Positions 44,216 through 46,072 of a stretch of DNA of 64,000 bases are shown piece by piece. Each line of letters opens with the position of its first letter. The stretch's first letter is position 1. The translations under genes and the position numbers were made by a program. Location: the sequence record OR352940.1. One strand, 5' to 3'. Under the pieces are notes generated by a model. The model was not told the DNA's origin. It saw only the letters and a list, made by a program, of their open reading frames with translations, and made no database searches. This DNA comes from Escherichia phage AV110.

Positions 44216-44467
44216 TTAAATTTCACGACATGCGATATCATATTCATCCCAGAGGTCGTCATGTGAAGCCTCTACCAATGGAACGATTGTACCGTTTATG
44301 TCTTCATTATAAGGACAAATTGTACAGTGCGCATCTTCGAATCGGATGCCTTTGTGTTCAGATTTTTTATAACGCATATCGAATATCTTTGCAAACTTTT
44401 CACGAGTAATAGTTTTAGCAACTACTTCGGTTCCGATACTTTCGTAATAAATCATTGTGGACTCCAT
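44216..44467 (-). CDS. hypothetical protein (83 aa)
   Basis: ORF downstream of early promoter. Confidence 0.45.
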   Translation of the reverse strand: MESTMIYYESIGTEVVAKTITREKFAKIFDMRYKKSEHKGIRFEDAHCTICPYNEDINGTIVPLVEASHDDLWDEYDIACREI

Positions 44468-44483
44468 TTGTTTTGATAGGACT

Positions 44484-44513
44484 ACTATAACATAGCCCTA
44501 TCTTGTTGTAAAC
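44484..44513 (-). promoter_or_regulatory. sigma70-type early promoter in conserved palindrome cassette
   Basis: ATAGGACTACTATAACATAGCCCTAT; rc gtaaac 44508-44513, actata 44484-44489. Confidence 0.5.
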
Positions 44514-44517
44514 TGTT

Positions 44518-44715
44518 TTAGCAAGAATAACTAGATGATACCCAGCCTTGAACAGTGATACTATTGTGGGATAATGAGATCGCGTCCTGGATATTCAGAC
44601 CTGCGTTATCTTCAATCCATAATGTAACTTCTTCGCGTTCTTCTGTTGCAATTTGGAACAGGTTTTCCAGGGCAGCTACTGCCGTACGTACAGCACAATC
44701 TAATTCACGAGACAT
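44518..44715 (-). CDS. small protein, GWVSSSxxC-tail family member A
   Basis: C-terminus ...VQGWVSSSYSC. Confidence 0.45.
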   Translation of the reverse strand: MSRELDCAVRTAVAALENLFQIATEEREEVTLWIEDNAGLNIQDAISLSHNSITVQGWVSSSYSC

Positions 44716-44724
44716 ATTGTTTCC

Positions 44725-44997
44725 TTAGCAAGTGTGAGAAGATGCAACCCAACCACCAGTTTCGAGGCTCAGGTTGTAGTCGTATTGGTAAACGTCAGCC
44801 CATTCAGCATAGCCATTTTTTGTACAACGTTCAAGATCGGCTTTAAGATGTCCGGGTGAATGATAGGTTCCACCCATACCATAAGCTGGGTACAAGTTGA
44901 ATGTTGTGTTTTGTTTATCAGCAATTTCTTTGGCAGCCTCAATAGCTGCATAGATTTTTGCTACAGCTTCAGCCAGTTCGGTTTGTTCTTTAGACAT
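44725..44997 (-). CDS. small protein, GWVSSSxxC-tail family member B
   Basis: C-terminus ...GGWVASSHTC; shares YG.G.TY.(S/P)(P/K)G with member C. Confidence 0.5.
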   Translation of the reverse strand: MSKEQTELAEAVAKIYAAIEAAKEIADKQNTTFNLYPAYGMGGTYHSPGHLKADLERCTKNGYAEWADVYQYDYNLSLETGGWVASSHTC

Positions 44998-45006
44998 AAT
45001 GATTCC

Positions 45007-45312
45007 TTAGCACAACGCAGAAGACGAAACCCAAGCACCTTCAGTAATAACGTATCCATTACCTTCACGCTTAACATCGCCGCCATTATTTTCAATTTCA
45101 TCTTTCATCCACTGGGATACGATTTCACCCTTAGGATAATAAGTACGACCGCTACCATAATCACCTACAGAAAATGATACGGCATATTGGTCTGCGATCT
45201 TTGTTGCTTCTTCTTCGATACGTTCAGCTTGATTCAGAAGTTTATAAATTGCATCTGAAGCGGATTTGGCATCATTAAACTCTGGTACTTTAATTTCAAT
45301 AATCTTACTCAT
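45007..45312 (-). CDS. small protein, GWVSSSxxC-tail family member C
   Basis: C-terminus ...EGAWVSSSALC. Confidence 0.5.
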   Translation of the reverse strand: MSKIIEIKVPEFNDAKSASDAIYKLLNQAERIEEEATKIADQYAVSFSVGDYGSGRTYYPKGEIVSQWMKDEIENNGGDVKREGNGYVITEGAWVSSSALC

Positions 45313-45668
45313 TTTCTACATTCCTTAATAAAGTTTTCGATTGTTTCATTTTCACGTCTAGCTAGGAGTTCATTATAACTAATCATTTGAGAAGCGTAAA
45401 CCTTTTTATTTTTCTTGTTGTGGTTTATAAAACCGTAGTAAAAATAGACTACAGTACAAAATGATGCGATGGATGCAAAGGCTTGGGTATACCGTAAGTC
45501 CTGCCATTGGTCTGTGAATCCACCAGTGTTCCCTATAAATCCTAACACAACGCCGTCAATAAGAAATCCAACTAATCCAAAGGCAAATCCCATGCCAATA
45601 CTCATAATAAAAATTAGAATGTTCTCACCAAGAGAAGGCCATACGGTTAAGAGTTGTGGCTTTTGCAT
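45309..45668 (-). CDS. membrane protein, FIKECR-tail family member
   Basis: TM segments; C-terminus ...ENFIKECRK. Confidence 0.5.
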   Translation of the reverse strand: MQKPQLLTVWPSLGENILIFIMSIGMGFAFGLVGFLIDGVVLGFIGNTGGFTDQWQDLRYTQAFASIASFCTVVYFYYGFINHNKKNKKVYASQMISYNELLARRENETIENFIKECRK

Positions 45669-46072
45669 CTTATCTCCTTAACGAATTCCATAGCTTCTTC
45701 ATATTCATACTTTTTAACAGCTTCATCATACTGAGCTTGGGCTTTTGCGCACTGAACTTTCCACTCACGAACTCGAGCTCTGTGATGACGGCCTTGGTGC
45801 CAATATCCTACCCAATTAATAGGCATTAATAAAAACGGTACAATAAGTGGTGCGACGAACATTAATGAAAACGCTGCATCGGACGATATAACTTTATTGG
45901 AATCTAAAACAGCTCCTATAATCATAAAGATTAAAAATGCTAAAGCTAAAATAGGGCCAAATAGTACTTCGTTTGGGATTAATTTACGTTTGTATTCGTA
46001 TGCCCAGGGCTTACTTGGCATGTATAGGGTTGGCTTTGACATATTCTCTACATTCCATAATAAATTGCTCAA
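45647..46072 (-). CDS. membrane protein, FIKECR-like tail
   Basis: TM segments; C-terminus ...MEFVKEIRCKSHNS. Confidence 0.45.
   Translation of the reverse strand: MSNLLWNVENMSKPTLYMPSKPWAYEYKRKLIPNEVLFGPILALAFLIFMIIGAVLDSNKVISSDAAFSLMFVAPLIVPFLLMPINWVGYWHQGRHHRARVREWKVQCAKAQAQYDEAVKKYEYEEAMEFVKEIRCKSHNS

Follow-up and report, generated by a model that had tools for sequence, protein, structure and literature searches.

Three adjacent genes in Escherichia phage AV110 (sequence record OR352940.1), of which one stretch of 64,000 nucleotides (the window) was analysed, encode small proteins that all end in the same manner, with a Trp-Val-(Ser/Ala)-Ser-Ser-x-x-Cys tail whose cysteine is the last residue of the chain. 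What is such an ending kept for? The answer that we favour, at about even confidence, is that the enzyme-like product of an adjacent gene, with the domains DUF7277 and DUF7275, recognises the tail as a motif and probably modifies it, and that the two kinds of gene form a two-gene phage module.

Three tandem paralogues

BLASTP matches among the adjacent open reading frames (ORFs) bore out the view, put forward in a preliminary description of this DNA, that they are tandem paralogues. The proteins of 90 and 101 amino acids (aa) matched each other with E=2e-6 and 30% identity, and the 65-aa protein aligned to the other two only via its C-terminal third (E=4e-4 and 2e-3). The endings and coordinates first given for the three genes were exact, the last eight codons of each translating as claimed; their strand, which is the minus strand, had been left unstated. 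The YG.G.TY segment ascribed to two of the three proteins was confirmed: it reads YGSGRTYYPKG in the longest (101 aa) and YGMGGTYHSPG in the next (90 aa), and is missing from the 65-aa protein. All three ORFs correspond to annotated coding sequences in public Mosigvirus records, and when all six frames of the 64-kb window were scanned for ORFs of 30 aa or more, none but these three bore the tail.

The tail as a family signature

Profile searches assigned the 101-aa and 90-aa proteins to PHROG 899 (E=1.3e-22 and 5e-19) and the 65-aa protein to PHROG 4882 (E=1.2e-36), two families labelled "unknown function". Despite this separation, short forms like the 65-aa protein recur beside long forms in related loci. 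No model of Pfam (143 members scanned) or NCBIfam matched the small proteins.

Word-indexed searches revealed relatives in Dhakavirus-like phages, in Aeromonas phages and on metagenomic contigs of 360-370 kb, and the full-length ones shared the ending. An exhaustive search of 1.84 billion representative proteins, performed with a profile built from the window proteins at E<=1e-3, yielded 173 protein clusters, almost all of 70-120 aa and nearly all matching to the final residue. A 953-aa match (P0082) was spurious and was attributed to helicase-associated repeats. The ending W-x-[S/A/P]-S-[S]-x-x-C was present in 155 of the 167 sequences retrieved, with the cysteine last in nearly all. The homologue search suggested in the preliminary description thus found the tail conserved in related phages.

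Alignment of 143 members, with a mean column identity of 16%, showed that Trp, the first Ser and Cys are invariant and that the second Ser is conserved at 96%; the unusual tail noticed in three proteins proved to be far more general than had been noted. The Y-G-x-G-x-x-Y hairpin was conserved at 90-94%, and conservation was confined to the columns A26, Y39, G40, G42, Y45, W83, S86, S87 and C90. The spacing from Trp to Cys was seven residues in 260 of 293 unique tails and five in 19, and the chain stopped exactly at the cysteine in about 95% of tails. Additional W-x-S-S units were found in 43 of 299 unique tails (about 14%), which carry two to three units, some of the internal ones having a Cys of their own (for example WVSSDC...WSDSGC...WSASSQSC). 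In the short forms of 52-65 aa the hairpin is gone and the tail is kept. No other cysteine occurs in 83 of the 155 tail-bearing sequences. The small proteins are acidic, with a median isoelectric point of 4.5 and a mean net charge of -7.7.

Judged from these alignments, the tail is a signature of the family and not a local oddity. Since short forms keep it without the hairpin, and since its units are repeated within tails, it has the properties of a portable linear motif.

Individual copies without the tail were also encountered. In RB69 (ORF139c, P0002, 71 aa) and mar005P1 (P0018, 75 aa) one paralogue is truncated or frameshifted and has no Cys tail. Individual copies may be dispensable, or these cases may be sequencing errors.

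Linkage of the Cys-tail genes to a DUF7277+DUF7275 gene

In the window, the DUF7277+DUF7275 gene lies 330 bp downstream of the trio, on the same (minus) strand. This conserved partner gene was a piece of context absent from the preliminary description. We fetched 80 viral loci by the profile of the partner enzyme alone, and then counted small-protein genes around it; the resulting co-presence counts describe a sample of loci among phage genomes. The tail pattern was found in 109 of 1237 ORFs located upstream on the same strand, in 1 of 1361 downstream and in 0 of 3383 on the opposite strand. A hidden Markov model (HMM) of the family detected members in 67 of the 80 loci, at one to six copies each, of which 130 were upstream and 6 downstream, all on the strand of the enzyme gene. 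Most of the loci without an HMM match displayed divergent tails on inspection by eye, such as WVQSSC, GWDSSSC or WLPSSWESC.

The linkage was also seen in the reverse direction. A degenerate DNA pattern for YGMGGTYY served to fetch 24 loci, and the enzyme gene was present in all 17 that reach far enough downstream. In each of four distant contigs found by protein, a Cys-tail gene stood directly upstream of a DUF7277+DUF7275 gene of about 300 aa. When all neighbours were clustered, the Cys-tail family was present in 72 of 83 loci, against 20 of 83 for the next commonest neighbour family. These counts argue for a specific gene pair rather than general synteny.

The pair occurs in Straboviridae (T4-like phages), in Phapecoctavirus (rV5-like, infecting E. 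coli), in Otagovirus (Pseudomonas phage M5.1) and on jumbo-phage contigs. In T4, e.3 directly follows e.2, and neither a small gene nor the enzyme gene was found in the 50 kb examined. Among 185,579 species genomes (one per bacterial or archaeal species), only four enzyme loci were detected, all on phage-like contigs of metagenome-assembled genomes (MAGs). The pair is essentially absent from cellular genomes and is restricted to phages. As for the four MAG contigs (L122-L125), three are labelled Candidatus Saccharibacteria and one is a 167-kb contig; Cys-tail genes lie upstream of the enzyme gene in at least three of the four. They are probably mis-binned phage DNA.

A further arrangement was observed on three phage contigs of about 168 kb (L066, L067 and L074), with five Cys-tail genes upstream of the enzyme gene and one downstream. 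Their tails are mixed (GWSSSYC, GWEGSSC, GWYSSHC, GWQASASSC), so that a single enzyme would need to accept Trp-to-Cys spacings of both five and seven residues.

Genes of the SIR2 family and metallophosphatase genes were found within about 3 kb of the module on several unrelated contigs (L010 9706-10533, L093 6165-6933, L097 4845-5606, L003 8647-9426 and L010 2341-3078). This recurrence could reflect a wider functional neighbourhood, involving nicotinamide adenine dinucleotide (NAD) or phospho-ester chemistry, or a coincidence. The 83-aa ORF that lies between the trio and the enzyme gene in the window was considered as a third component of the module. Neighbour clustering ruled this out, as the ORF is lineage-specific and takes this position only in close relatives.

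Features of the partner protein

The enzyme-like protein of the window matched Pfam DUF7277 and DUF7275 and PHROG 2141, the three E-values being 4e-150, 5e-79 and 1e-27. It is far better conserved than the small proteins, with 43-47% identity across the most distant loci. In an alignment of 35 sequences, G6, S7, D25 and D27 were invariant and E69 nearly so, and all enzyme starts inspected had the form hhhIGSxAL...DxDhh. These residues, in the N-terminal domain, correspond to the classical signature of Pol-beta nucleotidyltransferases, hG[GS]x9-13Dh[DE]h with a third acidic residue on a later strand. The spacing between G-S and D-x-D is 12-13 residues in most members of the family and 17 in the window protein. 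Sub-threshold Pfam matches were obtained to DUF6036 (E=0.0049, 2 of 35 members) and NTP_transf_5 (E=0.022, 1 of 35), and the protein is named nucleotidyltransferase in two GenBank records.

Further conserved motifs of the protein are KMSHR (125-129), YDHDxIH (192-198), E240-E241, E248-R249 and K270; the conserved polar residues of DUF7275 comprise K125, S127, H128, K139, H194-D195, H198 and the same E240-E241, E248-R249 and K270. PDB searches with profiles of 5, 35 and 21 sequences returned designed proteins and a weak match to the KEN region of RNase L (E=0.017/0.18) that lacked the conserved R-x4-6-H. Searches of NCBIfam and PHROGs with the enzyme gave nothing informative. Two ideas about particular residues were discarded. 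A reading of DUF7275 as an HD domain (H128...H194-D195...H198) found no support, the probability given by hhalign against Cca being about 0.1%. A pairing of C272 of the enzyme with the tail cysteine was dismissed because two loci (L076 and L081) have Ala at this position yet keep Cys-tail neighbours.

Two other phages provided side observations. The nrdC.11 gene of T4 (L127 5435-6445; FGSHLYG...SDVDF) is annotated as a nucleotidyltransferase, and its product was unrelated to DUF7277+DUF7275 by HMM and hhalign. In Brevibacillus phage Sundance, the distant enzyme homologue is preceded by a gene (L096 2258-2539) whose product is acidic and terminates in EYSSSYYEEEEYSSSYYEED; in this repeat an aromatic residue is followed by Ser-Ser-Ser, and neither Trp nor Cys occurs. 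This protein may be an analogous partner in phages of Gram-positive bacteria.

Predicted structure of the small proteins

Structure prediction, another check suggested at the outset, produced a confident small alpha/beta fold for the 90-aa protein when AlphaFold2 was run with the family alignment (predicted local distance difference test, pLDDT, 93; predicted template modelling score, pTM, 0.81). The model consists of a helix (3-29), a hairpin (32-46, containing YGMGGTY), a second helix (48-60) and a strand (81-85, GGWVA), followed by S-S-x-x-C. In this model the Trp is probably structural, and Ser-Ser and the terminal Cys project past the last strand. No significant structural match to the fold was detected in the PDB, only uncharacterised family members were matched in a viral structure library, and a search of the PADLOC anti-defence library gave no match.

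A proposed two-gene module and its alternatives

What was observed here, namely a motif of extreme conservation, a fold predicted for the small proteins, the gene linkage and the phage restriction, can be brought together as follows. The small, acidic, folded proteins would be one half of a two-gene module, in which the feature under selection would be W-x-[S/A/P]-S-S-x-x-Cys-COOH. The partner enzyme would recognise them by the tail, used as a handle, and would modify the tail itself, most likely by transferring a nucleotidyl or phospho-linked group onto the hydroxyl of an invariant Ser. The Cys thiol would either serve the finished product as its functional group or react in a second step, for example to a Ser-derived thioether. 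Through the variable bodies of the one to six paralogues, the modified tails would be directed to different targets or serve different roles early in infection. Recognition and probable modification at the tail are suggested by the combination of a near-invariant, repeatable motif on fast-evolving proteins with a near-obligate, directional linkage to the enzyme gene; the Ser hydroxyls would be the natural acceptors because the enzyme is nucleotidyltransferase-like. The association of Ser and Cys in each unit and the end of the chain at Cys are also reminiscent of thioether or aminovinylcysteine (AviCys) chemistry, a variant that we regard as speculative. Taken to its full extent, the proposal would describe a new phage-specific modification system, whose enzyme installs a covalent group on the tails of diversifying small carriers or effectors, perhaps by Ser O-nucleotidylation, elimination and capture by Cys to form a thioether, with a role in host takeover or counter-defence. 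This fuller version is possible, though on balance we doubt it.

Several points weigh against recognition and modification of the tail by the partner enzyme. The nucleotidyltransferase assignment is drawn from the motif and from sub-threshold matches. A single-sequence AlphaFold2 model of the enzyme was unusable (pLDDT 38.7), and hhalign of the enzyme against E. coli Cca (nucleotidyltransferase and HD) and T4 NrdC.11 gave probabilities of about 0.1%. No small gene was detectable beside the enzyme gene in one locus (L025) and in one lineage (L040-42/L058), and distant homologues from Streptomyces, Gordonia, Brevibacillus and Vibrio phages keep G-S...D-x-D without Cys-tail neighbours. In the window itself, the enzyme gene does not follow the trio directly, as the 83-aa gene and promoter- and terminator-like signals intervene. 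The Trp and the residues preceding it form the last beta-strand of a confident model, so that their conservation is partly structural. Finally, we infer the interaction, an active nucleotidyltransferase, the tail as its substrate and the chemistry; no interaction or modification was observed. The idea of the preliminary description that the tail could be a site of covalent modification has thus gained plausibility from the near-obligate linkage to a nucleotidyltransferase-like gene. Metal binding and proteolytic recognition, the other roles suggested there, may apply but gained no comparable support.

The main rival explanation keeps the pair and changes the role of the tail. The small proteins could inhibit or activate a nucleotidyltransferase effector, or confer specificity on it as subunits, the effector being directed against a host molecule such as a tRNA, a different RNA or a defence protein; the tail would plug or position the active site as in the antitoxins of MenT and AbiEii. 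We consider this rather unlikely. With one to six diverged copies for each enzyme gene, the pattern is unlike that of a 1:1 antitoxin, and the tail alone is conserved while the bodies drift, its unit being moreover repeatable within one protein. No Arg or His conserved family-wide was found that could form the R-x4-6-H motif of HEPN proteins, and no DNA-binding antitoxin domain was detected. The module is also hosted by lytic phages and absent from cellular genomes.

The other two alternatives separate the tail from the enzyme. The terminal Cys, the carboxylate and the Ser residues could bind a metal or act as a redox or sulfur-carrying arm, of the DsrC/TusE or SoxY type, in a pathway to which the enzyme belongs without touching the tail. 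Such an arm would agree with an invariant Cys at the very C-terminus, just past the last strand of the predicted fold, and with the 83 of 155 tail-bearing sequences in which it is the sole cysteine. However, Trp and Ser-Ser are as invariant as Cys, which a thiol arm alone does not explain. No homology to sulfur-carrier or metallochaperone families was found, no sulfurtransferase or metal-handling gene is conserved nearby, and the "sulfurtransferase" label of a neighbouring gene in JK36 is without profile support; this makes the explanation improbable in our view. Alternatively, the tail could be a structural C-terminal strand with its cap, and its adjacency to DUF7275 an inherited gene order. 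AlphaFold2 indeed places G-G-W-V-A, with high confidence, in a strand that joins those of the hairpin, and many of the loci come from T4-like phages with a common gene order. Yet short forms lose half of the fold and keep the tail, internal units are repeated, and a cap would not need the chain to stop exactly at Cys, as it does in about 95% of tails. The neighbourhood is otherwise unconserved (20/83 against 72/83), and the pair recurs in Otagovirus and Phapecoctavirus. We judge this last explanation very improbable.

Organisation of the locus

RB69-like T4-type coliphages of the genus Mosigvirus (e.g. APCEc01, JK36) match the region at 99% identity. The trio is part of a block transcribed leftwards that lies between e/nudE/e.2 and e.3-e.6, with tRNA genes a few kb away. 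The features of the locus are listed in Table 1.

Table 1. Positions of the Cys-tail genes and of associated features in the window.
Feature	Position	Strand	Remarks
Cys-tail paralogue 1, 101 aa	45007..45312	-	RB69ORF139c homologue, PHROG 899; ends ...EGAWVSSSALC-stop
Cys-tail paralogue 2, 90 aa	44725..44997	-	PHROG 899; ends ...GGWVASSHTC-stop
Cys-tail paralogue 3, short form, 65 aa	44518..44715	-	RB69ORF136c homologue, PHROG 4882; ends ...QGWVSSSYSC-stop
Tail motif WVSSSALC, paralogue 1	45010..45033	-	last 8 codons, then TAA
Tail motif WVASSHTC, paralogue 2	44728..44751	-	last 8 codons, then TAA
Tail motif WVSSSYSC, paralogue 3	44521..44544	-	last 8 codons, then TAA
Partner gene, DUF7277 (N-terminal) + DUF7275 (C-terminal), 318 aa	43231..44187	-	Pfam/PHROG profile matches
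83-aa ORF between trio and enzyme gene	44216..44467	-	PHROG 3723; three Cys; ends IACREI
Promoter-like TTTACG-17-TATAAT	45372..45400	-	GCTT 14 nt upstream of TATAAT; inside e.3-like gene, 60 nt before paralogue 1
Promoter-like TTTACA-17-TATAGT overlapping an imperfect hairpin	44484..44512	-	spacer after trio, before 83-aa ORF

The junctions between the paralogues (44715-44727 and 44997-45009) are near-identical, reading TGC TAA GGAATCATT ATG and TGC TAA GGAAACAAT ATG, and both have the form TGC-TAA-GGAA-N5-ATG. At the other end of the trio, the ATG of paralogue 1 overlaps the TGA that ends the upstream gene, which encodes an e.3-like membrane protein (ATGA, 45309-45312). The likeness of the junctions and this overlap suggest, from the sequence, that the ribosome-binding site was duplicated in tandem along with the gene, and that translation is coupled.

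The preliminary description had placed the three genes in an early promoter cassette, which the sequence bears out only in part. A sigma-70-like element, TTTACG-17-TATAAT (45400-45372), is present upstream of paralogue 1; the annotators of the SA79RD record label it a T4 middle (MotA-box) promoter. Because the ATG of paralogue 1 overlaps the upstream stop codon, translational coupling or read-through is at least as likely as expression from an own promoter. In the same SA79RD record, the spacer matching 44484..44512 is annotated as a terminator.

The e.4-like gene (45647-46021, minus strand) is named "sulfurtransferase" in JK36 and related records. This label was considered as a link to Cys chemistry and rejected, as neither Pfam nor NCBIfam supports it; it is probably an annotation artefact. 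Genes for tRNA-Arg(TCT) and tRNA-Met(CAT) lie at 50204-50383 (minus strand), at a distance from the trio of about 5 kb, which fits the e-to-tRNA region of T4-type phages.

Novelty and significance

A search of 8 million full texts by gene names, DUF and PHROG identifiers and concepts returned nothing on the family or the pairing. The partner family, the tail motif and the C-terminal domain of the enzyme are without known relatives, and the databases say "unknown function". Small early genes of obscure function number in the hundreds in large lytic phages, and very few offer a clue to how they might be studied; here there is both a motif and a candidate partner enzyme, and three hypothetical proteins become a testable two-component system. 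Should the enzyme modify the tail, phage biology would gain either a post-translational modification or an enzyme-adaptor logic of a new type, and a compact tag-and-enzyme pair for protein engineering might be derived from it. Should the chemistry of the modification be unusual, the system would be categorically new. If the small proteins instead regulate an effector aimed at the host, a new mechanism of host takeover or counter-defence would be present in many coliphages that are candidates for therapy.

Comparison with known systems

The proteins clearly belong to PHROG 899, 4882 and 2141 and to DUF7277 and DUF7275, but these entries record neither the tail motif nor the gene pairing. Among better described systems, DsrC/TusE and SoxY share a terminal Cys with the small proteins, but no Pfam or NCBIfam match and no significant structural match connects them. 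MenA-MenT and AbiEi-AbiEii show a similar order, with a small gene upstream of a nucleotidyltransferase gene on one strand. In contrast to these, 0 of 35 enzyme sequences matched AbiEii/DUF1814, as many as six copies lie upstream, the module is found in phages only and no DNA-binding domain is present.

The tandem small genes upstream of an enzyme gene, the Ser...Cys unit and the last position of Cys are features shared with ribosomally synthesised and post-translationally modified peptides (RiPPs), in particular with the AviCys-containing lanthipeptides of the epidermin type. All three window proteins end in S-x-x-C-COOH, as AviCys formation demands. Unlike RiPP precursors, however, they are folded proteins of a family spanning 65-140 aa, in which a conserved C-terminal motif follows a variable body in place of a leader with a variable core. 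No LanB, LanM or LanKC dehydratase, cyclase, LanD decarboxylase, radical-SAM enzyme, protease or exporter was found among the annotated or Pfam-marked neighbours. To our knowledge, dehydration via nucleotidylation is without precedent and is not a route of any known lanthipeptide class.

CitX and MdcG are enzymes of the nucleotidyltransferase fold that attach a nucleotide-derived group, via a phosphodiester, to a Ser of a small acidic carrier (CitD or MdcC, about 90-100 aa) encoded in the same cluster. No sequence similarity to them was detected, and genes for citrate lyase and malonate decarboxylase are missing. Their Ser is internal and the thiol comes from an arm derived from coenzyme A (CoA), whereas the tail has its own terminal Cys.

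In GlnD-PII, GlnE-glutamine synthetase and MntA-HepT, a Pol-beta-type nucleotidyltransferase nucleotidylates a specific partner protein on a hydroxyl side chain, and the genes of MntA-HepT are adjacent. The targets of these enzymes are Tyr residues in folded domains and not a C-terminal Ser/Cys tail, and PII, glutamine synthetase and HEPN proteins are unrelated to the Cys-tail family. Nor do the small proteins resemble the HEPN partner of type VII MNT-HEPN systems, as they have an alpha/beta fold and no conserved Arg or His from which R-x4-6-H could be built. What the GlnD, GlnE and MntA systems have in common with the pair described here, as far as the genes alone can tell, is a nucleotidyltransferase-like enzyme paired with a specific protein.

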